64,000 nucleotides of DNA from Candidatus Kaiserbacteria bacterium (GCA_963699165.1 OY969413.1:141984-205983), one strand, 5' to 3'. Counted from the stretch's first letter, positions 26,539-47,940 are shown. Numbers and translations: made by a program. Notes: generated from the letters alone by a model not told the origin.

Positions 26539-27599
26539 GGCGACTAGTCTTTTGAATTCGAACGTTTGATACATTGAGCGAATGAAAAAACCTCCGGCGG
26601 TGCGCACTTCACAAGGTCCGAACGAGACGAAATACAGATACTGTTAGCGAAGGGATACTCTTTGCAAGATGTCGGAGATGCACTCGACCGACCGAAGAGT
26701 GTCATATGGTACGAGACGCAAAAGAAGAGGAAGGGACGGCCGTATGATGCTGCATATGCGCATCACATTTCATACGTACGAAGGAAATACAGCCGAGCGG
26801 TCGGCAAGATGATTGCTCTCGACCCGAAGCTCCGGAAGTTCATCGAGGCGCATCTCTTCGACGATCAGTCGCCCGAAAACATCTCACTTCGATTGAAGCG
26901 GATCGAGAAGGATATCGGATATGCTTCATCCTCGGCTATACGCCGATATATCAAGAGCCCGTATGGCAGACGGATCGAGTCGCATCGAGCAAAGTTATTC
27001 AAGAAGAGGCGACGCTCTCGGCCATCGAAACCACACATTGCCGACAAGCGCCTGATCGACAAACGACCGAGCAAAATCAACAAGCGATGGGGATTGGGTC
27101 ACATGGAGGGCGACTTCATCGTGTCGGGCAAGAGCGGTCAAGGCATCATTCTTGGTCTGCGGGATCGCAGGGTGCGCAAAAACCTGCTGGAGCGGATCCT
27201 GCCAGTGTCAGTGCGAAACGTGGAGCGAGCGCTTCGCAGAATGAAAAAGCGGTATCCCGAGATGCAGACCATCACATTCGACAACGATATTCTCTTTCTC
27301 GAACACAAACGGCTAGAGAAGGTGCTTGGGGTGAAGATATATTTCTGTCATGTGCATGCGCCATGGGAGAAGCCATCAATCGAGAATCTGAACAAGGACT
27401 TGCGGCGGTACATCCCGAAAAGCTCGGATATTTCAAAGTATTCAAAAAGATTTGTGCAGAAACTCGAAGCAAAGATGAATCGCCGCTTCATGGATGTGCT
27501 CGGTTCACTCACGCCAGATGAGGCGTATGCTGCGGAAAAGAAACAACGCGCTCAGAGGAGCGCAAAAAACCGTCGTTCGAATTGAGGGGTTTGGGTGCC
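26539..27599 (+). mobile_element. IS30-family insertion sequence copy A (1061 bp, TSD CGC)
   Basis: Identical to copies at 35958..37018 and 46880..47940 (both minus). Ends GGCGACTAGTCTTTTGAATTCGAACG / CGTTCGAATTGAGGGGTTTGGGTGCC form imperfect IRs. CGC at 26536-38 and 27600-02. Confidence 0.85.
26662..27585 (+). CDS. IS30-family transposase
   Basis: 307 aa; N-terminal HTH, DDE core HMEGDFIVSGKS ... ITFDNDILF ... CHVHAPWEKPSIENLNKDLRRY. Confidence 0.9.
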   Translation: MQDVGDALDRPKSVIWYETQKKRKGRPYDAAYAHHISYVRRKYSRAVGKMIALDPKLRKFIEAHLFDDQSPENISLRLKRIEKDIGYASSSAIRRYIKSPYGRRIESHRAKLFKKRRRSRPSKPHIADKRLIDKRPSKINKRWGLGHMEGDFIVSGKSGQGIILGLRDRRVRKNLLERILPVSVRNVERALRRMKKRYPEMQTITFDNDILFLEHKRLEKVLGVKIYFCHVHAPWEKPSIENLNKDLRRYIPKSSDISKYSKRFVQKLEAKMNRRFMDVLGSLTPDEAYAAEKKQRAQRSAKNRRSN

Positions 27600-27720
27600 C
27601 GCTTGAAATTTTATGAAATATGGCTCGCTGGAGAGCGATTGTCAACCTTTTTTAGCCATGCATGTGCGTGCACGGAAATCGAGCCCCACATTTGTCAGGG
27701 GGCTCGAGATTGCCTTGTTA

Positions 27721-28041
27721 TCATGCGGACTTTTCCGCGCATTTGTTTAAAACCTCCTGCAAACAACTCCGCGCCGCAGTTTGGATTTCCGCGTAAAGTT
27801 GCGACTTAACGGGAAGTTGGTCCGCCTTTCCTGCCGGTTGGGAGATTTGCCTGAGATTGCCCACCATAGTCCTGTTAGGATTTTTCCTCGCCATGGGCAA
27901 CTCTCCGAAGCAATAACCCCAGACAATCTTTCCGTCTTTTCGATACCCAATGAAAACAATCGGGTATCCTTCACTGTCTTCTGAAAGTCGTGCAACGATT
28001 TTGCCGCGGCTGAAGAAATGCTCTTCGTTTTGTGGTGCCAT
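27721..28041 (-). CDS. Hypothetical protein
   Basis: 106 aa from MAPQNEEHFF; upstream Arg-rich extension of the ORF judged non-coding. Confidence 0.3.
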   Translation of the reverse strand: MAPQNEEHFFSRGKIVARLSEDSEGYPIVFIGYRKDGKIVWGYCFGELPMARKNPNRTMVGNLRQISQPAGKADQLPVKSQLYAEIQTAARSCLQEVLNKCAEKSA

Positions 28042-28162
28042 TCGAACCCTCCTGCCCTCACCATACCATCTGCGATTTTTTGAGTCCAGCGCGTGCCTCG
28101 GGGCAAAGAGAAGGGCCGCTCGTGAGAGCGGCCTTCGTGAATCCGCGCGTTTTATGCGAGTT

Positions 28163-28489
28163 TTAAAGGAACGATTCTGCTCTCGTACTTTCCCGCACGC
28201 GGTCAATTATGGCATCGATATGCGGTGCTGCCGCCAGTAGAACCTTTCTTATGATATCGACGGAGACACCCGGGATTATGATTTGGAACATCTGAATTGG
28301 TCCATCTTGTCTCGGATTCCGACTTCCGAGAAATGGAACTGCTTCTCCGTCCTCGAAAACCCAATCTCGTTTCCGGTGATTGACCTTGACCCCGTTCGGA
28401 GTACCAATCGTAACCGAGAAACTTCCGCCTCTGCGGCATAACCAGATTTCGACCGCCGTGTCTGTGTGCGTATGACTCATCTGCATCAA
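28163..28489 (-). CDS. Hypothetical protein
   Basis: 108-aa ORF, no motif. Confidence 0.3.
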   Translation of the reverse strand: MMQMSHTHTDTAVEIWLCRRGGSFSVTIGTPNGVKVNHRKRDWVFEDGEAVPFLGSRNPRQDGPIQMFQIIIPGVSVDIIRKVLLAAAPHIDAIIDRVRESTRAESFL

Positions 28490-28554
28490 TTTCTACCCCG
28501 ATGTATCGACGACCAATCGCGTCTGAGCCGACTATACTACAACCGTCGCATTTG

Positions 28555-29598
28555 TCAGCGACATGTACGCGTCCAGTACTTTTGGCAGTCCCCGACGGTT
28601 AATGTACACACAATATACCGCAAGGGGGACACCATGCCGAGCGACTGGTGCGGGCGTTTGGTGTTGTACCAGATCAGCCAGTCGACAAGCTTCAGATTGA
28701 AGGAATGAATATCGTCCCGCAGCAGGCCCCGATTCAGCATGATGAAGTCCTCGGAGACGGTGCGATTGAATCGTTCGACGTGGGCATTCATCTTGGGAGT
28801 GCGGGGGCGGGTGTGAAAGTGCGTGAGCCCGAGTTCGGCACAGGCATCCTCGAAGTGTTTGGCGAACTCGCTCCCGTTGTCGGTCTGCAACTCGTCGATA
28901 TCGAAGGGGCAAACCTCGATGACTCGGCGAAGGAAGTCGTCCGCGCTTCTCGACGAGTGGTTCGTATACGCGCCCGCAAAGGCGAACTTCCGCTCCACGT
29001 CCACTGCCGTGAGGACGTACCGCTTCACGCCGTCGATGAAGCGGACGACGGTATCGAGCTCCATGCCGCGCTTGCCGGTGCGGCGAAGCTTGGTACGGCG
29101 TTTCTGCGGTGTTTCCGTGTGATTGCCCGTACGTGCGTGGAACGAGAGCCGGCTCTGCTGCGGGAGCAGACCGCGGTTCTTCAAATCCAGAATGACCCGC
29201 CCAACGTATGACTCCGACACGGAGTACCCTTCTTCGCGCAGGAGAACGGCAAGCTTTGCTTTCCCAAGCCGGGGATGCGCCTGTCGTTCGCGGATGATGA
29301 AATCCTCGACCTCGGGCAGAACAGTCCTCCTTCGACGCGCCTTCGGCGCAGTGCTCTTCGGGTCAAGTGCATCAATGCGGCCCTCGTGGGCTTTGAGTTC
29401 CTCCTTCCAGCGATACAAGGTGCGCTCCGAGGTGCCAAAGGCGTCGTATGCGGCCTCCGTCCCGTGCATGTCCCAGAATCCCAATATCTTCACCCGTCTG
29501 TCGACTTCCTTTGGTTTCCGCATATGCCGCAATCGTATCGTCCTTTCCCACATGCTCAACCAGCCCTTCGTACCCCTGAAATTGCTTCTGATGTGCAT
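28555..29598 (-). CDS. IS481-family transposase (copy 3)
   Basis: Same protein; one M-to-H substitution near N-terminus (MHIRSNFRG). Confidence 0.85.
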   Translation of the reverse strand: MHIRSNFRGTKGWLSMWERTIRLRHMRKPKEVDRRVKILGFWDMHGTEAAYDAFGTSERTLYRWKEELKAHEGRIDALDPKSTAPKARRRRTVLPEVEDFIIRERQAHPRLGKAKLAVLLREEGYSVSESYVGRVILDLKNRGLLPQQSRLSFHARTGNHTETPQKRRTKLRRTGKRGMELDTVVRFIDGVKRYVLTAVDVERKFAFAGAYTNHSSRSADDFLRRVIEVCPFDIDELQTDNGSEFAKHFEDACAELGLTHFHTRPRTPKMNAHVERFNRTVSEDFIMLNRGLLRDDIHSFNLKLVDWLIWYNTKRPHQSLGMVSPLRYIVCTLTVGDCQKYWTRTCR

Positions 29599-29643
29599 AT
29601 ATCCTCGGTTATGAGGACTGCCAAATGTATCTGAACTTATGCA
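28564..29643 (-). mobile_element. IS481-family insertion sequence copy 3 (TSD CGACA)
   Basis: CGACA at 28559-28563 and 29644-29648; inserted about 50 bp upstream of tsaC start. Confidence 0.9.
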
Positions 29644-29696
29644 CGACAACGTGTTGGACGCGGGACAATTTCCTCACATCTGATATGTTTTCTGGA

Positions 29697-30242
29697 ATGA
29701 AAGAAGCGGAAATGCTGCTGGAAGGGAAGATGGGCGTGATTCCGACGGATACGATTTACGGGCTTGTTGCGTCGGCGCGCGACGGCGAAGCCGTCGCGCG
29801 CGTCTACACCCTCAAAGGCCGCACGCCCGCAAAGCCCTGTATCATTCTCATTTCTTCGCTTGGCGACCTCGCGGAATTCGGCATCTCGTTGACTCCCGAG
29901 CGCGAAAAAATCCTGTCGGAGTATTGGCCGGGGCCGGTCAGCATCGCGATGAAATGCGGCACTGACGTGCCGGAATATTTACACCGCGGCACGCACACGC
30001 TGGTGTTTCGGTTGCCGAGCGATGATCGGCTTGTTGATTTACTGAAAAAAGCGGGCCCGCTCATTGCGCCGAGCGCAAATCCCGAAGGGCAACCACCCGC
30101 AGCAACAATCGACGAGGCAAAAAAATATTTCGGCGGCAACGTTGACTTTTATGTGGACGGCGGAATTCTTGATGGCGCGCCGTCGACTCTGGTTTCATCG
30201 GACGAGCAAAACACGATTGCTGTTTTGCGCAAAGGCAGATAA
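29697..30242 (+). CDS. tsaC: L-threonylcarbamoyladenylate synthase (TsaC/YrdC/Sua5 family)
   Basis: VIPTDTIYGLVASA ... KGRTPAKPCIILI ... WPGPVSIAMK ... PSANPEGQPP = YrdC motifs. Confidence 0.8.
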   Translation: MKEAEMLLEGKMGVIPTDTIYGLVASARDGEAVARVYTLKGRTPAKPCIILISSLGDLAEFGISLTPEREKILSEYWPGPVSIAMKCGTDVPEYLHRGTHTLVFRLPSDDRLVDLLKKAGPLIAPSANPEGQPPAATIDEAKKYFGGNVDFYVDGGILDGAPSTLVSSDEQNTIAVLRKGR

Positions 30243-30263
30243 TCGTTTTCTGGACAAAAAGTC

Positions 30264-30297
30264 AGCCCCGTCGCAGTACGAGGGGCCTAACTTTTTG
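30264..30297 (+). terminator. Terminator after tsaC
   Basis: GCCCCGtcgcagtacgaGGGGC then CTTTTTGC. Confidence 0.5.
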
Positions 30298-30308
30298 CTT
30301 CCACATTT

Positions 30309-30785
30309 TTAATTGAATCGGCAGCTTTTGAATACGCTGCCCATGCCATGTCGGATTTCACCCCGTTCCCAGTCAAGGAAAATGAAGAATTCCAAGAACT
30401 TCAATAGAACCGGTGACTCCAGATGCAATTGGTAAAGAAAGATCTCTTGTGTGAGGTTTGCCAGTTCATGCCAGGGCTGATAGCGGCAAGTTTCGATTGC
30501 TCCCTCGCACGAATGTTTTTGAGTTTCGAGCAATTCCGCCAGAAATAAATACAGTTTTCCGGATACCCGACACCCATGGCCGGTCGCGTTTATTGGAATC
30601 GAACCGTAGGGGATGCTTTTCAATCTCCATAAGAAGTTCAAAAAATTCTTCCTATCCTCTGCCGAATAATTTTGCACAAACGCTCCTGTTTCGAAAGATT
30701 TGGAGATGTACTCTCCATGAGAATACCCTATCACCCGAGGGCCGGCAGGTCTATCGTTCGTGTGCATACCGAAAAGCTGCCGCAC
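30309..30785 (-). CDS. Hypothetical protein (last gene of the HD-hydrolase operon)
   Basis: 158-aa ORF; Cys/His residues but no assignable family. Confidence 0.35.
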   Translation of the reverse strand: MRQLFGMHTNDRPAGPRVIGYSHGEYISKSFETGAFVQNYSAEDRKNFLNFLWRLKSIPYGSIPINATGHGCRVSGKLYLFLAELLETQKHSCEGAIETCRYQPWHELANLTQEIFLYQLHLESPVLLKFLEFFIFLDWERGEIRHGMGSVFKSCRFN

Positions 30786-30812
30786 CGGGAAGGACGGCAG
30801 CTTCGAACATCT

Positions 30813-31070
30813 TTATCGCCGCGGCGATTCTTCTGCCAGCGGTTCGGGCAAGGGCCGCACCATGTAGAGTTCCGAACATTCCATAACCCGCTGGCCGATC
30901 ATAATCCGAAGCGGCGGACCCCATTCTCCCGAAGGGTTTGGACAACGGTCGTTTTCATCGATGATGTCTCCCGGAACAAGCATGATTCCGTACAGAACTG
31001 CGCCGCTGCGGTGATGGAAATGTTTCGTCGGTTTGAGCACGCACGCCTCCTCGATGCGATGGAATCCCAA
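30813..31070 (-). CDS. Small cupin-like protein
   Basis: KHFHHRSGAVLYGIMLVPGD and later GPPLRIMIGQRVMECSELYMVRP resemble cupin motifs 1 and 2; assignment weak. Confidence 0.3.
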   Translation of the reverse strand: MGFHRIEEACVLKPTKHFHHRSGAVLYGIMLVPGDIIDENDRCPNPSGEWGPPLRIMIGQRVMECSELYMVRPLPEPLAEESPRR

Positions 31071-31193
31071 AATGGGTAAAAAACTTCCGAATACGATTAT
31101 GCCGCAAGCCCAATGAATTTATTTTGAAATTGTCGGTATAAAAACAGAAAGCCCGCTGCGAAGCAGGGGACCTTCTGCTCGCGGCGGGCTGTC

Positions 31194-31757
31194 TTAAAAT
31201 CCTTCGTCTTCGATGCTTTCTGGATATTCAATCTCGGCTGCTATAGAGGGAGCTTTCCCTATTTGTTGCTCCTGTGTATCCACAAGAACCGCAATATGAA
31301 GATGGTCTCTTGCCTCTGCCGACGTTGCGTACGGGACGGTCAGTATCTGGCGATGGCATTTCTTGCCGGCCATGACGTTCTTAAAAACCACGAACGCAGT
31401 GATGTGTGCATCGATTTGACCGATGTTATAGACAGGGAACGGTTTGCACGCCTCGTTATCCCTGAATTTTGGCGTCCCGAGTGGCGGGACCACGACGATC
31501 TCCGTTAGGAGAAACAGCGCCGCAAGAAATGCGGAATTCATACACGCCTCCTCGGAACCATGTTCCACCACAAAACTATCACCTTGTCCCGCTTTATACA
31601 ATGGTCCAGAGTGCACAACTTTTTCGGATGCTACACTCTGCGCATGTTCATACAAGCCGTCAGAATTTTTCTTTTCATACTTATCATCGTCGGCATCGGA
31701 CTTTTGTGTACGCAAAATCTTTGGGTGCCGGGATTGGTGAATTGGATTTTGGCGCAT
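31194..31757 (-). CDS. Hypothetical protein (187 aa)
   Basis: ORF 31194..31946 trimmed to MRQNP start to avoid overlap with upstream HD gene. Confidence 0.35.
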   Translation of the reverse strand: MRQNPIHQSRHPKILRTQKSDADDDKYEKKNSDGLYEHAQSVASEKVVHSGPLYKAGQGDSFVVEHGSEEACMNSAFLAALFLLTEIVVVPPLGTPKFRDNEACKPFPVYNIGQIDAHITAFVVFKNVMAGKKCHRQILTVPYATSAEARDHLHIAVLVDTQEQQIGKAPSIAAEIEYPESIEDEGF

Positions 31758-31797
31758 TAAGTATTCCCAAAAAAAGACGCCCGCAGGTTGCGGGCGT

Positions 31798-32427
31798 TTA
31801 GGAAACCGGCTTGCCGTCCGGTCGCCACTCAGCCATTGCTTCGTGGATTTTCTCTTCGATAATATTTGCGTACGAACGCCACGGCTCGCCGTGTTCCCGC
31901 AGTGCGGGAATGAGGATTGGCAGATGGAACGCCATCGTTTCCTCAAGCTGATCTGACCTTTTTTGTTCAGTGCAGCCGTAAAGCGTGCGAAGGTTGTGCA
32001 AACGGTCGCACAACTTCGCGAGAATCGCTATCGGTCCCGCGGCCACGATTCTGCCAAGATATTTCTCGGTAGTTTCTTTCCCTCGGGGCAATTTCGTAAG
32101 CGCGACCACATACAAAGCGATTTCTTTGCCGAAATTAAGCGCAATTCTGTATGGCGACATCAAATCGGCATTTTCCTCGATGTCATGCAACAAGATCGTG
32201 ATTGCCACATCGGGATCACGACCATTCAGCTCGTAAGTATAGATCCACGTGGCCGACTTCGGATGGTCGAAATACCTGCTTCCGTCATCTCGCGTTTGTT
32301 GCGCATGGCCATGTTTCGAAACGATGTAAGCATATCTGATGCGCTCGAAGTCGGCCGGGTCGAGCAGTGCAAACGGCGCAAGGAAGAGTTCACGTCCGGG
32401 AGGACGTGGTCGAGGATTATCTCTCAC
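31798..32427 (-). CDS. HD-domain (p)ppGpp-hydrolase-like protein (small alarmone hydrolase, RelA/SpoT HD family)
   Basis: SKHGHAQQTRDDGSRYFDHP ... LLHDIEEN ... KLCDRLHNLRTL mirror the SpoT hydrolase H..H(x)nHD..ED and downstream motifs; no synthetase domain. Confidence 0.65.
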   Translation of the reverse strand: MRDNPRPRPPGRELFLAPFALLDPADFERIRYAYIVSKHGHAQQTRDDGSRYFDHPKSATWIYTYELNGRDPDVAITILLHDIEENADLMSPYRIALNFGKEIALYVVALTKLPRGKETTEKYLGRIVAAGPIAILAKLCDRLHNLRTLYGCTEQKRSDQLEETMAFHLPILIPALREHGEPWRSYANIIEEKIHEAMAEWRPDGKPVS

Positions 32428-35186: not shown

Positions 35187-35957
35187 TGCGTTTGAGTATA
35201 CCGCGACGGCGATTGGGGCAGCAGTATCGCCTAAAAAAATTGAAGAGCGGTGGAATCGGATTCCACCGCTCTGTTGCTGTCTGCAGCCGTCTCCTGCTCT
35301 TATGCCTCCGTGCAACGGAGAATTTGCCGGAAGCCGAGGCCCATGTCCCTCACGGGTTTGCAACCTCAAATGAGGCGTTTCGTTTATCGCACGTTCATGC
35401 TAACACAACGCGGGAAGTTTGCATGAAGTTTTCAACGATGAAAAATGTCCGGGTGCCGTGCAAAAGAAAGAATCGCCCGACGTGTCGAGCCATTCTTTAG
35501 GGTGTGTTTGTGCGAATTAGTAATCCGCCCATCGCCCCCCGTTTAACTCAAAGAACTTCTCCTGCCGCTCAGCTTCCTTTGTAGCCAGAGCGAAGAGATG
35601 CGATCGGAAATCTTCATCGGGCGGGTTTAGAGAATCGCGAGGGAAGTTTCCGATGTCTCTTCGGACGGTTAACAATCTCAGGCGATCGTCGCACGATGGC
35701 CGCTCGGGCGGACTTGCTATTATGGCGAGCAGATTTTGTGCCAGTGATGCAAGCAGGGGGTCCGTACCCCTTCAATTCTCCTTTCCGGCCCTGCCTGTTC
35801 AAAGAAGTATCATCAAATGCCGTGCCAGTCCAATTTTTAGTCGCGCACCTTAGGGCTGAAGGGATGATTACGGTATATCTTTCGTAGCATAACAAATATT
35901 ACGTCAAATGCTTGACTTTTCGGGCGGGAGGTTTATGGTGATGAGCGGACCCACAAA

Positions 35958-37018
35958 GGCACCCAAACCCCTCAATTCGAACGACGGTTTTTTGCGCTCC
36001 TCTGAGCGCGTTGTTTCTTTTCCGCAGCATACGCCTCATCTGGCGTGAGTGAACCGAGCACATCCATGAAGCGGCGATTCATCTTTGCTTCGAGTTTCTG
36101 CACAAATCTTTTTGAATACTTTGAAATATCCGAGCTTTTCGGGATGTACCGCCGCAAGTCCTTGTTCAGATTCTCGATTGATGGCTTCTCCCATGGCGCA
36201 TGCACATGACAGAAATATATCTTCACCCCAAGCACCTTCTCTAGCCGTTTGTGTTCGAGAAAGAGAATATCGTTGTCGAATGTGATGGTCTGCATCTCGG
36301 GATACCGCTTTTTCATTCTGCGAAGCGCTCGCTCCACGTTTCGCACTGACACTGGCAGGATCCGCTCCAGCAGGTTTTTGCGCACCCTGCGATCCCGCAG
36401 ACCAAGAATGATGCCTTGACCGCTCTTGCCCGACACGATGAAGTCGCCCTCCATGTGACCCAATCCCCATCGCTTGTTGATTTTGCTCGGTCGTTTGTCG
36501 ATCAGGCGCTTGTCGGCAATGTGTGGTTTCGATGGCCGAGAGCGTCGCCTCTTCTTGAATACCTTTGCTCGATGCGACTCGATCCGTCTGCCATACGGGC
36601 TCTTGATATATCGGCGTATAGCCGAGGATGAAGCATATCCGATATCCTTCTCGATCCGCTTCAATCGAAGTGAGATGTTTTCGGGCGACTGATCGTCGAA
36701 GAGATGCGCCTCGATGAACTTCCGGAGCTTCGGGTCGAGAGCAATCATCTTGCCGACCGCTCGGCTGTATTTCCTTCGTACGTATGAAATGTGATGCGCA
36801 TATGCAGCATCATACGGCCGTCCCTTCCTCTTCTTTTGCGTCTCGTACCATATGACACTCTTCGGTCGGTCGAGTGCATCTCCGACATCTTGCAAAGAGT
36901 ATCCCTTCGCTAACAGTATCTGTATTTCGTCTCGTTCGGACCTTGTGAAGTGCGCACCGCCGGAGGTTTTTTCATTCGCTCAATGTATCAAACGTTCGAA
37001 TTCAAAAGACCAGTCGCC
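35958..37018 (-). mobile_element. IS30-family insertion sequence copy B (TSD AAA on plus strand)
   Basis: AAA at 35955-57 and 37019-21; inverted relative to copy A. Confidence 0.85.
35972..36895 (-). CDS. IS30-family transposase (copy B)
   Basis: Same 307-aa protein with one K/V substitution (RAKVFKK). Confidence 0.9.
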   Translation of the reverse strand: MQDVGDALDRPKSVIWYETQKKRKGRPYDAAYAHHISYVRRKYSRAVGKMIALDPKLRKFIEAHLFDDQSPENISLRLKRIEKDIGYASSSAIRRYIKSPYGRRIESHRAKVFKKRRRSRPSKPHIADKRLIDKRPSKINKRWGLGHMEGDFIVSGKSGQGIILGLRDRRVRKNLLERILPVSVRNVERALRRMKKRYPEMQTITFDNDILFLEHKRLEKVLGVKIYFCHVHAPWEKPSIENLNKDLRRYIPKSSDISKYSKRFVQKLEAKMNRRFMDVLGSLTPDEAYAAEKKQRAQRSAKNRRSN

Positions 37019-37064
37019 AAATGCCGGATCCTTTCCGGCTATCTTTTGACAGGAAGGAATCAGA

Positions 37065-37904
37065 ATGAACTTCGGGAAAGTAGGGAAAGCCCTGGCGTTG
37101 GCCGCGCTGGCTGCAATGCTCGCCCAGCCGGCGCTCGCATGCAAAACCCAACCGCCTTCGCACGGCGGCACCGTGAACAACGGCGGCCAAGGTGGCGAGG
37201 GCGGACAGGGCGGGCAAGGTGGCACGGGCATCGGGTACGGTGGCGCTGGCGGAGCCGGTGGTGCCGGAGGGAACGGGTACGGAGGCGAGGGTGGAAACGG
37301 GTATGGTGGGAGCTCCTCATCATCCTCTTCTTCCTTAGCGACGGGAGGAAGCGCGAACGCGGCAGGTGGTTCGGCAACCCTGTACGGCGGTTCGTATATC
37401 CAGATCCCCAACTTCCCTCAAGCACCCGGCGGTTGCGCAGGTTCAGACACCGTGTCGGTACAGGGCGGAGTCATGGGGAGTACGGGCATCGGGACCCAAC
37501 CCGTGCCGTACGGAGGTGTTGCCTGGTCCAAAACGTTCAACGGCCCAAAAATGACTCCGGAGCTGTGCGCAAACCGCACCATTGTGTATGTGACGAACAA
37601 CTATACGATGCCTCCGGCAGCCCCGGCGCCGGAAGCCAAGGTCGTGTTCGTTCCGATCACGCGGGAGAAGGTCGTGTATGTGCATGACACGAACTGCCCA
37701 GCACTGGTTGCATATCCAGAGTTGGCCGCCGACAAGGCACAGATCTACGGTCTCGCCAAATCGCATCGATACTGGAATCATGCCGATTTGGTAGCAGTGA
37801 CACGGCTGTGGAAGCACGGCTACATATGCGGGGTCAGCCTGCTCAAGATCATCGATGATTCCAAAGCTCTCGCATCCTATCTGGATCAGCACCCGATCCA
37901 GTAG
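37065..37904 (+). CDS. Secreted glycine-rich protein (GGQGGEGG / GYGG repeats, poly-Ser) with Cys-containing C-terminal domain
   Basis: Signal peptide MNFGKVGKALALAALAAMLAQPALA; low-complexity Gly block; antisense ORF 36980..37411 is a Pro-rich shadow. Confidence 0.55.
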   Translation: MNFGKVGKALALAALAAMLAQPALACKTQPPSHGGTVNNGGQGGEGGQGGQGGTGIGYGGAGGAGGAGGNGYGGEGGNGYGGSSSSSSSSLATGGSANAAGGSATLYGGSYIQIPNFPQAPGGCAGSDTVSVQGGVMGSTGIGTQPVPYGGVAWSKTFNGPKMTPELCANRTIVYVTNNYTMPPAAPAPEAKVVFVPITREKVVYVHDTNCPALVAYPELAADKAQIYGLAKSHRYWNHADLVAVTRLWKHGYICGVSLLKIIDDSKALASYLDQHPIQ

Positions 37905-39565: not shown

Positions 39566-39669
39566 TGGGTAGTGTTGAATAGACAACGCTCGGCGTCTTA
39601 ATCGGGCGCAAAAGCAAAATCGTCCTCAAACGAGGACGATTTTGCTTTTGCGCCCGGTCGGAATCTTGG

Positions 39670-41130: not shown

Positions 41131-41173
41131 AAGACGTTTTATTTGCGCACATACATAGTACAATAATACGGAC

Positions 41174-42931
41174 ATGTGGCAGCAGGCGACGGACCCATTC
41201 CATAGCGTAATCGTTTCCGCGGCGGTCGCGGCCGTCCCGATTCTATTTCTTTTCATCCTCCTTTTGAGCCGCAAGGTTGCCGGACATGTCGCGGCATTGC
41301 TGACGCTCTTGCTCGGGTTGGCTCTCGCCGTGACTGCGTTCGCGATGCCGGTCGGACTTGCGGGAATGGCCGCGCTCTACGGCGTTCTGAACGGATTGTT
41401 CCCGATCGGGTGGATTGTGCTGAATGCGGTGTTTCTTTACAACATCAGCGTCCGAAGCGGCGGTTTTGAAATCGTACGAGACAGTATTGAGTCGGTTACG
41501 GCCGACCGGCGGTTGCAAGCACTTCTCATTGCTTTTTGCTTCGGCGCATTTCTCGAAGGCGCTGCCGGATTCGGGGCGCCGGTTGCCATTACCGCGGGCA
41601 TGCTGGTCGGACTCGGTTTCGAAGCGCTGTATGCGGCGGGCGTTTGTCTTATTGCAAATACCGCTCCGGTGGCTTTCGGCGGCATCGGCATTGCGGTTAT
41701 CACGGCAGGACATTTGACCGGCATCGACCCGAATGTGTTAAGCAAAATGATTGCGCACCAGCTTCCGTTCATCGCGCTCATCATCCCGCTCTGGCTCGTA
41801 GTCATCGTCGCGGGTTGGAAAGGTGCGCGTGAAGTATGGCCGGCCGTTTTGGTAACCGGCGCTTCTTACGCGCTCACGATGTTTCTGACCGCAAGCTATC
41901 TCGGTCCCATGCTGCCGGACGTGCTATCGGCCATCGTCTCGATTCTTTGTTTGATAGGACTGCTCAAAATATGGCATCCGATAGAGGTTTGGCGTTTCCC
42001 GAAAGAACGGCTGAACGCTCTTGCGCCGTCGAATCGCGCGCATAGTTGGGATGAACTGATCCGCGCATGGTCGCCGTTTCTGTTACTCGTGATTTTCGTC
42101 GGCAACTGGGGAACACCGGGCGTGCAGCAGCTCCTCAATAAAGTAACCATTCAAATACCTTTCGGCATTCTCGCGCACTCGATTATCGGCAATGGCGTCC
42201 CGCTTTCAATCAGCTATTCTTTCGCATGGCTTGAAGCCGCAGGCACCGCAATATTTTTTGCAGCCGCTCTTTCCGCCGTCATGCTCGGCCTTTCGTGGAT
42301 CGCATTTTGGCAGACGGCGCTGCAGACGCTCAAGGAATTGTTCAAGCCGCTTGCCACCATCGGTTCGATTGTCGGCTTCGCGTATGTTGCGAATTATTCG
42401 GGCATGTCCGTTGCCATAGGGAACGCGCTCGCCGACACGGGAGTGTTCTTTCCGTTTCTTTCGCCGCTTATCGGCTGGTTCGGCGTTTTCATAACGGGAA
42501 GCGATACGTCGTCAAATGCTCTTTTCAGCACCATTCAGTCGCAGACCGCGCAATCGCTCGGTGTGAGCCCGGTCTTGAGTGTCGCGTCAAACAGCAGCGG
42601 CGGAGTTGCGGCAAAGATGATTTCTCCGCAAAGCATCGCCGTGGCGACCGCTTCCGCAAAGCTTCCGGAGCAGGAGGGAAGATTGTTCAGGTTCACCATC
42701 CTGCATAGCGTTGGACTCGTGCTCGTCATTTGCACGATTGCCTATTTGCAGGCGCGATACGCGACGTGGATGATTCCAAAAGCGGCGGCTGCATCGGCAT
42801 CGGCGGCAGGCGGGTTCGATTATGTCGCGGCAAGCATTGCAACCGCATCAATCGTCGCAGTGCTTTTTCTTGCGGTCGTATCCCGCTCGGTCGGGCGTAC
42901 TGTGTTCGACAGAACGGCACTTGCCCGATAA
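41174..42931 (+). CDS. lctP: L-lactate permease (LctP family)
   Basis: 585 aa, about 14 TM, N-terminus MWQQATDPFHSVIVSAAVAAVPILFLF and conserved GAAGFGAPVAITAGML. Confidence 0.8.
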   Translation: MWQQATDPFHSVIVSAAVAAVPILFLFILLLSRKVAGHVAALLTLLLGLALAVTAFAMPVGLAGMAALYGVLNGLFPIGWIVLNAVFLYNISVRSGGFEIVRDSIESVTADRRLQALLIAFCFGAFLEGAAGFGAPVAITAGMLVGLGFEALYAAGVCLIANTAPVAFGGIGIAVITAGHLTGIDPNVLSKMIAHQLPFIALIIPLWLVVIVAGWKGAREVWPAVLVTGASYALTMFLTASYLGPMLPDVLSAIVSILCLIGLLKIWHPIEVWRFPKERLNALAPSNRAHSWDELIRAWSPFLLLVIFVGNWGTPGVQQLLNKVTIQIPFGILAHSIIGNGVPLSISYSFAWLEAAGTAIFFAAALSAVMLGLSWIAFWQTALQTLKELFKPLATIGSIVGFAYVANYSGMSVAIGNALADTGVFFPFLSPLIGWFGVFITGSDTSSNALFSTIQSQTAQSLGVSPVLSVASNSSGGVAAKMISPQSIAVATASAKLPEQEGRLFRFTILHSVGLVLVICTIAYLQARYATWMIPKAAAASASAAGGFDYVAASIATASIVAVLFLAVVSRSVGRTVFDRTALAR

Positions 42932-42945
42932 AATACGCGCATCGC

Positions 42946-43332
42946 ATGGAACCGAATTCCGCAGAACAAATTATCGGGGTAAACGCGCCGCTCATTTGCC
43001 CGTATTGCCATCAGCCGGTCGAGCCGACCTTTTATTATTGTCCGAATTGCGGCACAAAGCTCAACGTCGCACCGCTTTCGACAACGCCGCTCACGCAGGC
43101 GTGGATTTACGCGTTCAGCATCATCCTGCCGTTTATCTGCTTCTTGGCAGTGGGGAAATGGCCGGGATTGAAATATTATCGGTCCGAAGATCCGAAGACG
43201 AAATCAATCGGAATGACCGCGTGGATTCTGATGCTTCTCTCGACGATTGTCATGTGCTGGCTCGCCTACGTTTGGACGATGGACGCGATTCAGTCGACGG
43301 TAAATAGCATCAATACGGATTTGAGCGCATGA
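42946..43332 (+). CDS. Zinc-ribbon domain membrane protein
   Basis: CPYCHQPVEPTFYYCPNCGTKL followed by two TM helices. Confidence 0.5.
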   Translation: MEPNSAEQIIGVNAPLICPYCHQPVEPTFYYCPNCGTKLNVAPLSTTPLTQAWIYAFSIILPFICFLAVGKWPGLKYYRSEDPKTKSIGMTAWILMLLSTIVMCWLAYVWTMDAIQSTVNSINTDLSA

Positions 43333-43420
43333 TTTTCGGAGCGCGCGACGTTGCTCGACTGTACTGAGTGTAAAGCAATCCGCCGTGAGGCGGATTTCTT
43401 TTTTTTGGTTTCTTTCGACT

Positions 43421-44050
43421 TTAGCCGTTTGATCGTTTGAGATTGAACGTGCCGGAAATTTCTCCGTATTGGCTTGACCTCGTGAAGGTTCCCGAAACGG
43501 TGTCCCCGGATTGCGTTCCCGTAAAGGTAATGTTCGCACCGGTCTCGGCCTGGCCCGAGAAGCTGAGCGAATTGCCGTTAACTTGCAACTGAACCGGTCT
43601 GCCGGCGACACTGGTGCATTGCGGTTTTTCGGTTACGGGCGATGCTCCGGTGAGGGTGATGACCTCGGTTGTGCACAAATTGCTGTACGAGAGTGTGCCG
43701 ACGGCGGTGCCGTTCTCGACTTTCTGAATGACGATGGTTACGTCGCCGCTCGTGGTGACTGCGGTGCTCGAGTGTGCAAGAACGATTTTCCCCGACCCTT
43801 GCATTCCTTTGCCCGGCGTTGCCGAAACCCATGTCCCGACCAAACTTGAAGCGGCAGGCGCATTTGCCGCCGCCGTGTTGGTGACACCCGCGGCCGCCGT
43901 GCCGGTTGTGCTTGCCGCCGGTACGTTCGCCGTTTGCGAAGTTTGCTCCGAGGATTTGGTTTTGTTAAGTACGGAGACCGCTATGACGACAATGAATACC
44001 AGAACGAACGCCCCGATCGCGTAGTACAGCAAGGAAGATTTTTTGTTCAT
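43421..44050 (-). CDS. Membrane-anchored hypothetical protein with Thr/Ala-rich linker
   Basis: N-terminal TM, low-complexity linker, about 130-aa C-terminal domain with two Cys. Confidence 0.4.
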   Translation of the reverse strand: MNKKSSLLYYAIGAFVLVFIVVIAVSVLNKTKSSEQTSQTANVPAASTTGTAAAGVTNTAAANAPAASSLVGTWVSATPGKGMQGSGKIVLAHSSTAVTTSGDVTIVIQKVENGTAVGTLSYSNLCTTEVITLTGASPVTEKPQCTSVAGRPVQLQVNGNSLSFSGQAETGANITFTGTQSGDTVSGTFTRSSQYGEISGTFNLKRSNG

Positions 44051-44178
44051 ATAAGTAAATATCTATAAAAAGAGTACGAGATCCGCGGTATTTTGCCGCA
44101 AGTATATGATAGCAGATTTGCAGTGCGTGCGGAGCATTCTTCATGCGATATTTCGAATTCGGTTTGTAAAATTTGCGC

Positions 44179-44397
44179 ATGAAAACAATGACTTGCGCGC
44201 AAATGGGCGGCGAATGCGATGCGGAAATATCGGCCGAAACGCCGGATGAAATGATTGAGAAGGGCATGGCGCATCTCGAAATCGCGCATCCGAAAATGGC
44301 CGCCGATGTCAAAGCAACGCCCGAAGACGATCCGATTATGGTCGCATGGGGCGAAAAGTTTGCAAAAGAATGGGAAGCGGCTCCCGAGGCGAAGTAG
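44179..44397 (+). CDS. DUF1059-family small protein
   Basis: MKTMTCAQMGGECDAEISAETPDEMIEKGMAHLEIAHP fits the DUF1059 N-terminal C..G..CD pattern. Confidence 0.5.
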   Translation: MKTMTCAQMGGECDAEISAETPDEMIEKGMAHLEIAHPKMAADVKATPEDDPIMVAWGEKFAKEWEAAPEAK

Positions 44398-44499
44398 CAT
44401 CGGTAATGTTCTTCATGATGATACGGCGTAATGAATACGGAAATAACATGAAGGGACGGCGGTAATTTCCTTACTTTAGCCATAACGACGTATCGGCTT

Positions 44500-46824
44500 A
44501 TGATTTACTCGGCACATCGGCGTCTTGCGGGACCGGTTTTGTTTTTGCTTGGCGGTTTTTTCGCGGCGCCGCTTTTTGCGAATGCAGGCACCAACCTCAT
44601 TCAGAATCCGACGTTTGCGATTCAAGGCGCCACGACTTCGCCGATGAACTGGATACCGGTTTTCTGGGGCGCTGCGGCAAGTTCGACGTTTGCATATCCG
44701 GTTTCCGGCGAGGACGATAATTTTGCCGCGCAAGTCACGGTACCGACATACGGTGCCGTCGGTGAAGGGAATGGTTCCGCCGAATGGCTGCCGGGACGCG
44801 TCCTCATTAATCCGGGCGCGTTGTATACCTTTTCCGATTGGTACAAATCCGATGCCGAAAGTTATGTCGCCGTACAATGGCTGCTGAACGACGGAACGTT
44901 TTTGACGGAATCCGTGGCGACGCTCGCGCCGACGGGAGGGCAGTGGGCAAACGACATGCAGATTTTCAGCGCGCCCGAGAATGCAATCGCCGTGACGCCG
45001 ATTCATTTCATTCAAAGCGCAGGGACGTTCGCCATCGACAATGTTTCTCTGGCCGAGGGCGCAAATGCGTTCCCCGGAGCATTAAATAAAGCGATTGTAT
45101 CGCTGACGTTTGACAACGGATACGAATCGCAATATCTGAACGCGTTTCCGATATTGCAGTCCGCGCATCTGCCGGCTACGTTCTATATCATCACAAATAC
45201 AATCAAGAATTCCATCTACGACTTCTTTACCGACCCTAACGAAGCGATAAAGACCGCGACAACGTCGACGAGCGCCGCATGGTCGCAGATTTACACGGAT
45301 TCGAAAGTGCAGGCGCTCATTTTCTCGGATACGTATACTTCCGACGGGACAAGCACGATTGAAGCCGACTACACCATTAACAGTGCCGCGAGTTCGACAA
45401 TTCTCGGAACGCTTGCCGCCGGAACAAACGCACGGGCGTTATTCACATTCACTCTTCCGATTGTCGCGAGCAGTACGGTTACCCCGATAAGCATCATGCA
45501 TCGGAGTTCGTCCGCGCTCACCGCTTCCAATCCGTCGCTGATTGAAAACATTCCGCAGCAAATGAGCGTTCCGCAATTGCAGGCGCTCTGGGCGGCTGGC
45601 AATGAAATTGCTTCGCACACCGTTACGCATAGCGACCTGACCGCGCTCTCGACCGCGCAAGTATCGCAAGAACTCGCGAATTCCCGTGCGGCGCTCGCCT
45701 CATGGGGCATAGTCCCGGACGATGGATTGGCGTATCCTTTCGGGAACTATAGCGCCGGCATTGAAACGCAGACGGCGGGAGCGGGCTACATAGACGCACG
45801 CACCGTGGACATCGGGTATAACACGGCGCTCACCGACAAATTTGCACTAAAGAGTCAGAGTTTGGTGTCCTCGACGACCTTTAGCGTTGCGCAGTCGTGG
45901 ATAGACACGGCAATTGCCAACAAGCTTTGGCTCATCATTACGTTCCATGACGTCGACAATCAGGCCACGATTAATGCCAACGGGGAAACGTACGGCACGA
46001 CGCCTCAAATCCTGCAGCAGATTGCGGATTATCTGAAATCGCAATCGTCGAATGTGTCGGTGCTGAGCGTACACGACGCGCTCGGACATCTGAGTACGAC
46101 GACAGACGCAACGTCAACGCCTCCGGCCGATACGACTCCGCCGGTTATAACGCTTAACGGTTCGCCAACGATTACGCTCACCGTCGGTGATGCGTATACG
46201 GAACCTGGCGCGACCGCTACCGATACCGTAGATAGCACGGATGCCGTCGTCATAAGCGGCGATGCGGTCAATACCGCAGTTCCCGGCATATATGTCGTGA
46301 AATATGATGCGACCGATGCGGCGGGGAATCATGCCGTGGAGGTGACGCGCACCGTAACCGTGGTCGCGGCTACTTCGTCGGTCACGACGGGCGGAGGCGG
46401 CGGAAGCAGTAGTGGCGGCGGCAGTATCGGCGGAGGCGGAGGATCGATTCTCGCCGGCAGTAGCGGTTCGCCGAATCCGTACCCGTGGGAAATTCACGAT
46501 GCGGCAAGCACGACGCCTGAAGCCGTTCCCGTCATTTCGAAACATATCAAGCCGCACACCGGTTACGTGCTCGGCGCCGCAACGTTCAAGTTTTCCAAAC
46601 ATCTAGCGCTTCGCTCACACGGCACGGACGTAACCGAGCTTCAGAAGTTTCTCATTGAAGAAGGTTTCCGAATTCCTTCCGGCGCTTCCGGTTACTTCGG
46701 TGCGCAGACCAAGGCGGCGGTAATAGCGTATCAAAAGGCAAACGGCCTTCCGCATACGGGCTATGTCGGTCCGCTTACGCTCGCGCTCTTAAACAAGGGC
46801 AGCGGTCTCGCGTTGGGGAAATAA
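44500..46824 (+). CDS. Secreted multidomain polysaccharide deacetylase (NodB) with an Ig-like domain (DUF5011 type), a poly-Gly linker and a C-terminal PG_binding_1 domain
   Basis: Signal peptide; IVSLTFDNGYESQY ... ITFHDV (NodB motifs); PPVITLNGSPTITLTVGDAYTEPGATATD (Ig-like); C-terminal TDVTELQKFLIEEGFRIPSGASGYFGAQTKAAVIAYQKANGL. Confidence 0.7.
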   Translation: MIYSAHRRLAGPVLFLLGGFFAAPLFANAGTNLIQNPTFAIQGATTSPMNWIPVFWGAAASSTFAYPVSGEDDNFAAQVTVPTYGAVGEGNGSAEWLPGRVLINPGALYTFSDWYKSDAESYVAVQWLLNDGTFLTESVATLAPTGGQWANDMQIFSAPENAIAVTPIHFIQSAGTFAIDNVSLAEGANAFPGALNKAIVSLTFDNGYESQYLNAFPILQSAHLPATFYIITNTIKNSIYDFFTDPNEAIKTATTSTSAAWSQIYTDSKVQALIFSDTYTSDGTSTIEADYTINSAASSTILGTLAAGTNARALFTFTLPIVASSTVTPISIMHRSSSALTASNPSLIENIPQQMSVPQLQALWAAGNEIASHTVTHSDLTALSTAQVSQELANSRAALASWGIVPDDGLAYPFGNYSAGIETQTAGAGYIDARTVDIGYNTALTDKFALKSQSLVSSTTFSVAQSWIDTAIANKLWLIITFHDVDNQATINANGETYGTTPQILQQIADYLKSQSSNVSVLSVHDALGHLSTTTDATSTPPADTTPPVITLNGSPTITLTVGDAYTEPGATATDTVDSTDAVVISGDAVNTAVPGIYVVKYDATDAAGNHAVEVTRTVTVVAATSSVTTGGGGGSSSGGGSIGGGGGSILAGSSGSPNPYPWEIHDAASTTPEAVPVISKHIKPHTGYVLGAATFKFSKHLALRSHGTDVTELQKFLIEEGFRIPSGASGYFGAQTKAAVIAYQKANGLPHTGYVGPLTLALLNKGSGLALGK

Positions 46825-46879
46825 CGAGACGGTTGACAGGATTCAAGGTAATGGGTTATATACAGCCAGTATAGTTCAC

Positions 46880-47940
46880 GGCACCCAAACCCCTCAATTC
46901 GAACGACGGTTTTTTGCGCTCCTCTGAGCGCGTTGTTTCTTTTCCGCAGCATACGCCTCATCTGGCGTGAGTGAACCGAGCACATCCATGAAGCGGCGAT
47001 TCATCTTTGCTTCGAGTTTCTGCACAAATCTTTTTGAATACTTTGAAATATCCGAGCTTTTCGGGATGTACCGCCGCAAGTCCTTGTTCAGATTCTCGAT
47101 TGATGGCTTCTCCCATGGCGCATGCACATGACAGAAATATATCTTCACCCCAAGCACCTTCTCTAGCCGTTTGTGTTCGAGAAAGAGAATATCGTTGTCG
47201 AATGTGATGGTCTGCATCTCGGGATACCGCTTTTTCATTCTGCGAAGCGCTCGCTCCACGTTTCGCACTGACACTGGCAGGATCCGCTCCAGCAGGTTTT
47301 TGCGCACCCTGCGATCCCGCAGACCAAGAATGATGCCTTGACCGCTCTTGCCCGACACGATGAAGTCGCCCTCCATGTGACCCAATCCCCATCGCTTGTT
47401 GATTTTGCTCGGTCGTTTGTCGATCAGGCGCTTGTCGGCAATGTGTGGTTTCGATGGCCGAGAGCGTCGCCTCTTCTTGAATAACTTTGCTCGATGCGAC
47501 TCGATCCGTCTGCCATACGGGCTCTTGATATATCGGCGTATAGCCGAGGATGAAGCATATCCGATATCCTTCTCGATCCGCTTCAATCGAAGTGAGATGT
47601 TTTCGGGCGACTGATCGTCGAAGAGATGCGCCTCGATGAACTTCCGGAGCTTCGGGTCGAGAGCAATCATCTTGCCGACCGCTCGGCTGTATTTCCTTCG
47701 TACGTATGAAATGTGATGCGCATATGCAGCATCATACGGCCGTCCCTTCCTCTTCTTTTGCGTCTCGTACCATATGACACTCTTCGGTCGGTCGAGTGCA
47801 TCTCCGACATCTTGCAAAGAGTATCCCTTCGCTAACAGTATCTGTATTTCGTCTCGTTCGGACCTTGTGAAGTGCGCACCGCCGGAGGTTTTTTCATTCG
47901 CTCAATGTATCAAACGTTCGAATTCAAAAGACCAGTCGCC
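46880..47940 (-). mobile_element. IS30-family insertion sequence copy C (imperfect TSD)
   Basis: Identical 1061 bp; flanks give TTG/GTG (2 of 3) in element orientation; about 28 bp upstream of the KGG gene start. Confidence 0.85.
46894..47817 (-). CDS. IS30-family transposase (copy C)
   Basis: Identical to copy A protein. Confidence 0.9.
   Translation of the reverse strand: MQDVGDALDRPKSVIWYETQKKRKGRPYDAAYAHHISYVRRKYSRAVGKMIALDPKLRKFIEAHLFDDQSPENISLRLKRIEKDIGYASSSAIRRYIKSPYGRRIESHRAKLFKKRRRSRPSKPHIADKRLIDKRPSKINKRWGLGHMEGDFIVSGKSGQGIILGLRDRRVRKNLLERILPVSVRNVERALRRMKKRYPEMQTITFDNDILFLEHKRLEKVLGVKIYFCHVHAPWEKPSIENLNKDLRRYIPKSSDISKYSKRFVQKLEAKMNRRFMDVLGSLTPDEAYAAEKKQRAQRSAKNRRSN

Follow-up and report, generated by a model that had tools for sequence, protein, structure and literature searches.

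Three recent insertions of an IS30-family element in a Candidatus Kaiserbacteria genome, with a probably promoter-anchored target and a probably slippage-gated transposase

Three copies of one IS30-family element

The DNA studied here, 64,000 nucleotides from Candidatus Kaiserbacteria bacterium (GCA_963699165.1, OY969413.1:141984-205983; hereafter the window, with positions counted from its first nucleotide), contains three copies of an insertion sequence (IS) of the IS30 family. We consider it probable that they are three recent and independent insertions of one element which is anchored to host promoters, bears a terminator-like structure and gates the synthesis of its transposase by slippage on a run of adenines. 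The out-of-frame and probably leaderless start, the promoter-anchored target and a terminator-like hairpin facing read-in transcription would be features of a whole clade, a view supported by family-wide statistics. The geometry of the copies is ordinary; the elements are unusual, and their out-of-frame start and promoter anchoring appear to be undescribed. A wider proposal, which we put forward only tentatively, is that two unrelated IS families of Patescibacteria choose their targets by promoter geometry at single-nucleotide precision and that the slippage gate is obligatory in the IS30-like clade.

The copies were located by a repeat search and self-BLAST of the whole window, and are as follows:

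26539..27599, + strand: copy A, 1,061 bp, left inverted repeat (IRL) at 26539, right inverted repeat (IRR) at 27599, private single-nucleotide polymorphism (SNP) at IS position 8 (A)
26536..26538 and 27600-27602: target-site duplication of copy A, CGC, perfect 3 bp
35958..37018, - strand: copy B, IRR at 35958, IRL at 37018, private SNP at IS position 457 (Leu to Val)
35955..35957 and 37019-37021: target-site duplication of copy B, AAA, perfect 3 bp
46880..47940, - strand: copy C, IRR at 46880, IRL at 47940, consensus genotype
46877..46879 (IRR side, CAC) and 47941-47943 (IRL side, CAA, + strand): flanks of copy C, imperfect, 2/3 match

A preliminary description of this region had reported three identical copies, and their number, coordinates and orientations proved exact; the copies are not identical, as two SNPs in total separate them (pairwise identity 99.8-99.9%). 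Position 8 is A in copy A and G in copies B and C; at position 457, copy B has G (TTA Leu to GTA Val) and the other two copies have T. Since copies A and B each differ from copy C by one private change, the latter has the consensus genotype and may be the oldest. All three copies are 1,061 nt long, and the geometry was also borne out, with an inverted A/B pair around 8,358 nt and a direct B/C pair around 9,861 nt. The separate duplications CGC and AAA, as well as the two-of-three match at copy C, were read exactly as previously reported.

The terminal 26-nt inverted repeats are imperfect (17/26 matching), with GGC tips and a AATTCGAACG core. Each 26-nt end motif occurs three times in the window, against an expectation of 0, which means that there are no solo ends. 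In addition, the scan with these motifs found no junction between inverted repeats (IR-IR junction) in the window and no copy abutting another IS end. All three copies are intergenic. The possibility that they interrupt genes was tried and rejected, as their in-silico excision restored no convincing open reading frame (ORF). A short GC-rich hairpin was observed 1-4 nt from the IRL side of copies A (26513-26538, CCCGTgtggaaACGGG) and B (37019-37045, GCCGGAtcctTTCCGGC), where it would fall in the 5' leaders of the downstream genes.

The IS30-family assignment, already proposed in that description, was confirmed by the NCBIfam model NF033563 (168.4 bits, E 2.5e-49, cut-off 80), and the length, the inverted repeats and the 3-bp duplication are consistent with it. 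Relatives at 51-85% protein identity were gathered as 10 loci from species-representative genomes plus 80 of 277 metagenome relatives, and their ends were placed by an ungapped scan for the tip motif. The size of 1,061 bp and the imperfect terminal repeats are of the IS30 type, and the tips are conserved across these relatives. A perfect 3-bp duplication was present in 13 of the 50 relatives with both ends anchored on the conserved tips, versus 0.8 expected, and therefore 3 bp is the family rule. All named GTDB matches of the transposase were metagenome-assembled genomes (MAGs) of Patescibacteria type, and the metagenome matches came from sample sets bearing groundwater- or aquifer-type names. 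Judging from these matches, the element belongs to a clade found so far only in genomes and metagenomes of Patescibacteria or Candidate Phyla Radiation (CPR) type.

The transposase gene starts out of frame

The features of the 5' end of the transposase gene are:

26570..26575, + strand: -10-like hexamer TACATT, putative transposase promoter inside IRL, 6 nt 5' of the ATG and preceded by TGA (extended -10); in copy B 36982-36987 (-), in copy C 47904-47909 (-)
ATG 26582-26584 and A6 run 26585-26590, + strand: the ATG is +1 out of frame; in copy B 36967-36975 (-), in copy C 47889-47897 (-)
26590..27585, + strand: main frame of the transposase, 332 codons including the stop, with HTH_38 and the DDE motif; in copy B 35972-36967 (-), in copy C 46894-47889 (-)

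The longest conventional ORF, of 307 aa from a TTG at 26662, gave no Pfam match even at E<=10. The frame is open upstream of this TTG and encodes AHFTRSERDEIQILLAKGYSLQDVG, a typical IS30 helix-turn-helix, and no in-frame ATG, GTG or TTG lies between the preceding stop and the TTG. When the M-K-K read from the out-of-frame ATG is joined to the main frame by a slip of one nucleotide, a protein of 334 aa results, in which the TTG is residue 28 and lies inside HTH_38. This domain (PF13936, residues 9-45, 29.6 bits versus a cut-off of 27) was detected only in the slip-corrected protein. Both the helix-turn-helix upstream of the TTG and the DDE motif (MEGDFIV, FDNDILF, SIENLNK) are conserved in 9 relatives.

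The usual IS30 arrangement of one uninterrupted ORF with an in-frame start was not found here, nor is any in-frame start conserved in the clade. ATG followed by A4-A9 was out of frame in all 86 elements whose 5' end could be recognised; the shift required is +1 nt in 70 of them and -1 or +2 nt in 16. One further element, read by eye, has the same layout with A3. Clustering at 97% identity gave 71 lineages, 59 of the first class and 12 of the second, with none in frame; the slippery run and the offset expected of programmed realignment or frameshifting were thus at the frame junction in 71/71. The out-of-frame start is kept down to about 51% protein identity, and the frame class has switched at least nine times on a neighbour-joining tree without producing any in-frame member. 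Among the best 120 protein clusters, 33 are near full length and none of them starts with MKK: they begin at an upstream GTG or TTG, reading through '(N/H/Y)EK', which is the signature of the out-of-frame ATG, or at internal codons. In the minority class a TGA of the main frame overlaps the ATG, which rules out an in-frame start before the run. Without the shift, the product is a peptide of 9-34 codons whose length is not conserved.

Some members of the clade were observed individually. MAG DBS2-1.bin164 harbors two diverged members (L005, JAJYJQ010000029.1, and L006, JAJYJQ010000005.1) with runs of A7 and A6, both of the minority frame class. At L007:2950-3936 (OY970175.1) the ATG and the A-run have been lost and a shortened IRL-like stretch, GTTTGTCTTTGATATTTGAACG, runs straight into helix-turn-helix coding. 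This is probably a decayed copy; its sister, L008, in the same 899-kb genome, is intact.

An ordinary explanation for such a start would be that it is the OFF state of a DNA-level phase variation, or that the copies are dead and are mobilised in trans by rare in-frame masters. Homopolymer tracts do mutate by replication slippage, and every copy sampled is in the 'off' state. Nevertheless, we hold this explanation as very improbable, given that no in-frame member was seen in the 71 lineages or among the 33 near-full-length proteins, and that, apart from the start, the ORFs are conserved and run unbroken for more than 330 codons. Moreover, the length of the run is invariant within 12 groups of near-identical copies (29 copies, including those of the window, which are all A6). 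As Illumina assemblies were included, this invariance makes both phase variation and sequencing error unlikely.

How the frame would be restored

Upstream of the ATG, the pattern TAnnnT was found at -12 to -7, that is, with a spacing of exactly 6 nt, in 56 of 67 non-redundant 5' regions, and T at -7 in 64 of them, the spacer sequence itself not being conserved. No Shine-Dalgarno sequence was found upstream of the ATG in these 67 regions, and by inspection no -35 box was evident at a usable distance in the IRL. With the hexamer 6 nt from the ATG, transcription is predicted to start on the A of this codon and to give a leaderless AUG-A(n) mRNA.

From these elements the following mechanism can be proposed. 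A weak, -10-only promoter in the IRL would give a leaderless mRNA beginning AUG-A6, and RNA polymerase would slip on the A-run in a minority of transcripts, adding one A and so allowing the full-length transposase to be made. Alternatively, although we grade this as less likely, ribosomes would shift -1; either way, transposition would be kept rare. Polymerase slippage in early transcription seems to be the best explanation of the frame change, because one process would cover both frame classes, would tolerate runs of A4-A5 and would need no downstream structure. It also fits recent evidence that, where a good -10 box is followed by a spacer of 6-7 nt, A/T tracts commonly show productive reiterative initiation (PMC12709180).

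A frame change made by the ribosome is the serious rival, although an unlikely one. It would consist of a -1 shift on G_AAA_AAA in most elements and of a +1 shift in the rest. G_AAA_AAA recurs among the -1 heptamers of prokaryotic frameshift clusters (PMC3711429), and AAA-AAA is reported to shift -1 in E. coli without a strong stimulator (PMC1851650). In some relatives, as L021-L025 with ATG AAA AAC TAA, a stop codon directly follows the run. However, with at least nine lineage switches between -1 and +1, two ribosomal mechanisms would have to be interchangeable, and runs of only A4-A5 occur. Neither the downstream structure nor the Shine-Dalgarno-like element of classical ribosomal -1 frameshifting was found, RNAalifold detecting no conserved RNA structure in the first 80 nt downstream of the run in 35 elements. 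In addition, the leaderless -10 spacing would place the run in the initially transcribed region, where the polymerase slips most easily.

Some points weigh against polymerase slippage. Reiterative initiation is known at the first three transcribed bases (PMC12709180), and here the run starts at +4; slippage during elongation is usually described for runs of at least 8-9 A (PMC3711429); and the heptamer G_AAA_AAA is itself a recognised -1 frameshift signal in the same source. Besides, the transcription start, the slippage and the termination treated below are all inferred from sequence conservation.

Annotation systematically reduces such transposases to ORFs of about 300 aa, truncated at the N-terminus and lacking the DNA-binding domain, which affects IS censuses of metagenomes. 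If the proposed reading is true, a start-proximal, frame-gating A-run would be a minimal throttle on transposase synthesis.

A target site probably anchored on host promoters

When insertion sites with clean duplications were aligned, a motif emerged next to the IRR and not next to the IRL. In 68 unique IRR flanks the informative positions, read on the opposite strand, correspond to TTGACA and TATAAT. With a criterion of at least 9/12 matches to TTGACA-N16-18-TATAAT, a promoter match directed into the IS was present in 48 of 63 unique IRR flanks with 16-19 nt between the -10 box and the element, a distance that was 17 nt in 33 of them. The control sets (reverse-read flanks, IRL flanks in both directions and shuffled flanks) gave 3-11 matches each, at scattered distances. 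With the start of the host transcript taken about 7 nt after the -10 box, the duplicated triplet lies at about +9 to +11. The palindromic or own-end preference of E. coli IS30 was not seen, as the motif is asymmetric and restricted to one side.

In the window, these features are:

27617..27645, - strand: predicted host promoter P_A, TTGACA-17-CATATT, reading into the IRR of copy A; 17 nt between -10 box and IS
35912..35939, + strand: predicted host promoter P_B, TTGACT-16-TATGGT, reading into the IRR of copy B; 18 nt between -10 box and IS
46833..46862, + strand: predicted host promoter P_C, TTGACA-18-TATATA, reading into the IRR of copy C; 17 nt between -10 box and IS
27547..27564, - strand: inward-facing terminator-like hairpin TGCGCTCCTCTGAGCGCG plus TTGTTTCTTT, 36-53 nt in from the IRR tip; in copy B 35993-36010 (+), in copy C 46915-46932 (+)
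25760..26452, - strand: ORF that copy A separates from P_A; 230 aa at its longest, without family match
37065..37904, + strand: 279-aa gene that copy B separates from P_B; 46 nt from IRL to start codon
47968..48252, + strand: 94-aa KGG/LEA_5-like gene that copy C separates from P_C; 28 nt from IRL to start codon

At the three copies the transposase gene runs antisense to, and converges with, the host promoter. In all of them, a scanner placed the hairpin and its T-tract on the strand that the host promoter would transcribe. When each sequence was searched separately, such a structure was found 30-55 nt from the tip in 57 of 64 unique ends, versus 4 on the other strand and 3 in shuffled sequences; the stem sequences differ between lineages. 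The hairpin and T-tract would stop incoming host transcription that runs antisense through the transposase gene, and if the hairpin does terminate, the insertion would be polar on the downstream host gene.

The transposase would, then, choose a promoter-proximal target. If this is true, the transposases would recognise promoter DNA or promoter-bound RNA polymerase, and a bacterial transposon would be selecting its target in a new way, by a constant distance from the -10 box; in the literature searched we found no report of a bacterial IS at such a fixed distance. Each insertion would also mark a promoter and its direction, giving a handle for promoter mapping in uncultured CPR bacteria.

The same pattern could arise from survival instead of targeting, if insertions land widely but a gene-dense genome of about 1 Mb retains only the ones that fall in short 5' leaders. 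CPR genomes are compact, the window copies are all intergenic, and a second, unrelated IS is also promoter-associated, which could mean a shared permissive niche. But harmlessness would give neither single-nucleotide precision (33/63 flanks at exactly 17 nt, 48/63 at 16-19 nt) nor strict orientation, and it would not favour cutting a gene from its promoter and carrying a terminator as well. Furthermore, that second element, an IS481-like one, is equally exact at a different promoter position (6/6). The precision and the strict orientation would argue for target selection over survival of harmless insertions, and we regard survival as an improbable source of the pattern as a whole.

Other observations weaken the case for promoter anchoring and for the hairpin. 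Promoter-like matches in the window number 13 against 12.5 expected, for which reason the calls at single sites are weak by themselves; a separate promoter scanner called P_A and P_B and missed P_C, which fails its stricter rule of a T as the sixth base of the hexamer. Downstream of copy A the gene is uncertain, since in a public short-read assembly the call covers 25760-26164 only. In 32/36 relatives an ORF of 60 aa or more starts within 200 nt of the IRL and reads away from the IS, with 23/36 in a control that is a poor one. The association with promoters could also partly reflect the sites where insertions survive rather than those where they land. Finally, RNAalifold did not recover the terminator hairpin as a consensus structure, because its stems are not in register in the MAFFT alignment; the evidence for the hairpin is that of per-sequence detection.

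Independent insertion and potential for rearrangement

That copies A and B inserted independently, and not as a composite transposon, had been proposed from their duplications and was sustained by our analysis. Each has its own 3-bp duplication and hence results from a separate insertion. The outer flanks of the possible composites are CGC/AAA for A..B, CGC/CAA for A..C and AAA/CAA for B..C; no pair matches, and therefore none was inserted as a composite transposon.

The arrangement of the window was compared with independent contigs of the same strain from GCA_049279115.1 (the public short-read assembly mentioned above), SRR27973122 and ERR10755936. Seven junction contigs, ending 26-134 nt inside the IS copies, confirmed five of the six junctions at 100% identity:

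left junction of copy A: contigs L102/L103
left junction of copy B: contigs L013/L014
right junction of copy B: contigs L001/L101
left junction of copy C: contigs L001/L002
right junction of copy C: contig L015

All of them fit a single arrangement. No alternative junction was found in these seven contigs of three read sets, where contigs from short reads cannot span 1,061 bp and minor isoforms are invisible.

The previous claim that this geometry predisposes to inversion of the first interval and to deletion or excision of the second stands as far as the geometry is concerned, and no rearrangement was seen. As potential only, the A/B and B/C pairs are possible substrates for homologous or transposase-mediated inversion, deletion and composite mobilisation. 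E. coli IS30 joins the ends of distant copies, giving deletions, inversions and cointegrates (PMC9333248), so that rearrangement would not depend on homologous recombination alone. Movement, as in E. coli IS30, would be copy-out-paste-in. The B..C unit has a proper IRR/IRL outer pair and is for that reason the more competent composite. The A-B interval is bounded by two IRR ends, with P_A and P_B at its extremities and both directed outward. It is predicted that inversion between A and B would give each of the two flanking genes the promoter that now faces the other, and that a B x C deletion would leave P_B facing the KGG/LEA-like gene.

We see little probability that the region is an active switch, in which A x B exchange flips the 8.4-kb glycosylation interval and B x C exchange deletes or excises the 9.9-kb segment at appreciable frequency. 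In its favour stand the real geometry, the capacity of IS30-type transposases to join distant ends, the outward promoters that an inversion would swap, and two hints of rearrangement, namely the unmatched duplication of copy C and a 159-nt scar of the second IS family at 51737-51895. The contigs just described speak against it, within the blindness of short reads to minor isoforms. Moreover, copies A and B still have matched flanks, and an A x B exchange would leave swapped, unmatched ones, from which it follows that no odd number of inversions, and no net inversion, has occurred since insertion. GC skew was uninformative: most of the window has positive values, and the dip at 28-33 kb is too small to interpret. 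The comparison with empty sites or syntenic regions gave nothing either, as the nearest lactate permeases (74-81% identical) lie in unrelated neighbourhoods and exact-protein look-ups returned only the same strain or nothing.

The unmatched duplication of copy C could come from decay, from IS-by-IS exchange or from IS movement coupled to deletion. IS events without target-site duplication are documented, and a missing duplication is one signature of IS-associated rearrangement (bioRxiv 10.1101/2024.06.02.596822). At copy C the IRR junction is canonical with respect to the promoter, so at least this side is an original transposition joint.

There is a very small chance that the flanks were mis-paired during assembly across collapsed 1-kb repeats. 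The unmatched flanks of copy C would fit such an artefact, and many metagenome contigs of relatives pair flanks without a common duplication, some of them sharing one flank (L057/L058; L023/L024/L089), as would be expected from assembly through a multi-copy repeat or from IS-by-IS recombination. Against this, no other pairing of the six flanks of the window yields more matched duplications, five junctions were reproduced exactly, and in the independent assembly contig L102 links the private SNP of copy A with its left flank. The arrival of the three copies together, as a composite transposon or in one acquired block, would agree with their near-identity, with the proper outer pair of B..C and with the 2/3 match of its outer flanks, but it is hardly credible in view of the perfect individual duplications of A and B, the mismatched outer flanks of A..B and A..C, the canonical distance of each copy from a different host promoter and the private SNPs that set A and B apart from C.

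A second element: IS481-like copies

The window also contains four copies of an IS481-like element and a fragment of it:

10508-11587: copy 1, 1,080 bp, duplication TGAAG, promoter match TTGACA-17-TACTCT
14328-15407: copy 2, 1,080 bp, duplication GTTTT, promoter match TTGACT-17-TAATTT
28564..29643, - strand: copy 3, 1,080 bp, in the A-B interval, duplication CGACA, promoter match CTGACA-16-TATAGT
54500-55579: copy 4, 1,080 bp, duplication TGGTA, promoter match TTGCGG-16-TAGAAT
51737-51895: 159-nt fragment, with 15 nt of the left flank of copy 2 (duplication, TTGACT and GCCG) and the first 144 nt of the IS

The four copies have the same orientation, 99.7-99.9% identity and a perfect 5-bp duplication each. 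An IS481 copy had previously been noted in the A-B interval; it is there (copy 3), and it is one of four. The best match of the transposase was the model NF033577 (IS481), at 182.7 bits and thus below the cut-off of 224, and the domains rve, rve_3 and HTH_32 are present. As direct repeats, these copies bracket intervals of 3.8 to 44 kb, including the whole IS30-like region, and are larger deletion substrates.

In the 70-nt flank of each of the four copies, the best promoter match begins precisely 5 nt past the right end, so that its -35 box is contiguous with the 5-bp duplication; the promoter is directed outward from the IS and co-oriented with the transposase. Two relatives at 62-71% identity repeat this layout with perfect duplications (L104, CATCC|TTGACA-17-CATTGT; L106, GCTTC|TTGACG-17-TACTAT; at 2500-2600 in each). 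This predicted abutment of the -35 box, at 6/6 independent sites, is suggestive in a small sample. In copies 1-3 and in both relatives the transposase ORF stops at the TGA inside (T/C)TGAC(A/T/G), while in copy 4 it stops at a TGA 18 nt beyond the end of the element. The promoter of copy 4 lies just upstream of tRNA-Asn.

The 159-nt fragment is a rearrangement scar, and the unrelated sequence that follows it again offers a -10-like TAGTAT at 17 nt. Two further observations concern copy 3. The longest ORF of tsaC/Sua5 starts at 29625, inside the end of this copy (29643), and contigs L013 and L014 both begin at window position 29790, about 145 nt beyond it, a coincidence that the repeat does not explain.

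Gene content of the window

The content reported for the A-B interval was found entire: Sua5/TsaC, HD_4, GT2, LAB_N, PMT_2 and an IS481-like copy. The 37-47 kb segment had been described as a secreted-protein region, a name that is partly apt, as it also encodes a NUDIX protein, a VTT/DedA-type protein and the lactate permease. Large proteins encoded at 16526-17797, 44500-46824 and 60982-63549 have Ig-like or cadherin-like repeats and PG_binding_1, one of them with a polysaccharide deacetylase domain, which suggests a cell-surface-rich neighbourhood around the IS cluster.

At 53038-54447 a serine-recombinase-like protein of 449 aa is encoded, with Recombinase and Zn_ribbon_recom domains and no resolvase N-terminal domain detected; its gene ends beside tRNA-Asn (54375-54447, - strand) and IS481-like copy 4. 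The recombinase/tRNA-Asn site may be the edge of an integrated element spanning about 48-54 kb. Near-perfect palindromes of 49-54 nt, 92-98% self-complementary, lie at 20045-20094, 22192-22240 and 39603-39656, and one of them coincides with contig ends (39656 is the first position of L002, and 39620 the last of L101).

Together, the IS sequences account for about 7.7 kb, or 12%, of the window (3 x 1,061, 4 x 1,080 and 159 nt), and the source genome, of a Minisyncoccia (Patescibacteria), is of about 1 Mb. Patescibacteria are usually regarded as streamlined. In this ultra-small CPR genome, IS elements persist and have recently moved.

Comparison with known systems

The IS481 family and the IS481-like element of the window share an rve-type DDE transposase, a size of about 1.08 kb and a short duplication. 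The latter differs in its score below the cut-off, in its 5-bp duplication abutting a -35 box and in the end of its ORF at the TGA in TTGACA, and IS481 itself targets NCTAGN. IS1630 of Mycoplasma fermentans, an IS30-family element, targets terminator-like inverted repeats and duplicates them; the likeness lies in that an IS30-family target can be structural or positional rather than sequence-specific. Integration tied to transcription-start or promoter regions is found in yeast Ty3 and fission-yeast Tf1, which are eukaryotic retroelements guided by transcription factors.

E. coli IS30 has a single uninterrupted ORF with two N-terminal helix-turn-helix regions, whereas elements of the CPR clade have one such region only and an ATG that is always out of frame. 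Both have a DDE transposase of the family model with an N-terminal HTH_38, a length of about 1.1 kb, imperfect repeats of about 26 bp and a short duplication, and copy-out-paste-in transposition through an IR-IR junction is an inferred likeness. The stagger of E. coli IS30 is of 2 bp, at near-palindromic hot spots or at its own ends (PMC9333248), in contrast to the 3 bp and the asymmetric, apparently promoter-anchored target of the CPR clade. The strong junction promoter of IS30 (PMC9333248) has no evident counterpart in the clade.

IS30 goes unmentioned in three major recoding surveys, and a search of the literature for IS30 together with slippage, realignment, frameshift or promoter targeting found nothing relevant. 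If the proposed reading is true, this would be the first use of such recoding on a leaderless mRNA in the IS30 family, as none has been reported. Reiterative transcription of the pyrBI, codBA and upp type is a comparable system. With the IS that use slippage or frameshifting (IS3, IS1 and IS630-type, PMC1088944; IS1447, PMC6211511) the clade shares a conserved A-run where the frame must change. The known slippage IS fuse a sizeable orfA to orfB in the middle of the gene, typically on A8-A10 or A_AAA_AAG, and make two functional proteins; in the CPR clade, unlike them, A4-A9 directly follows the start codon of a predicted leaderless mRNA, and +1 and -1 configurations occur in one family. Reiterative initiation in E. 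coli (PMC12709180) has in common with it a strong -10 box, a 6-7-nt spacer, an early A/T homopolymer and the addition of extra nucleotides. There the tract occupies +1 to +3 and affects transcript yield, whereas in the CPR clade it would start at +4 and act as a frame gate.

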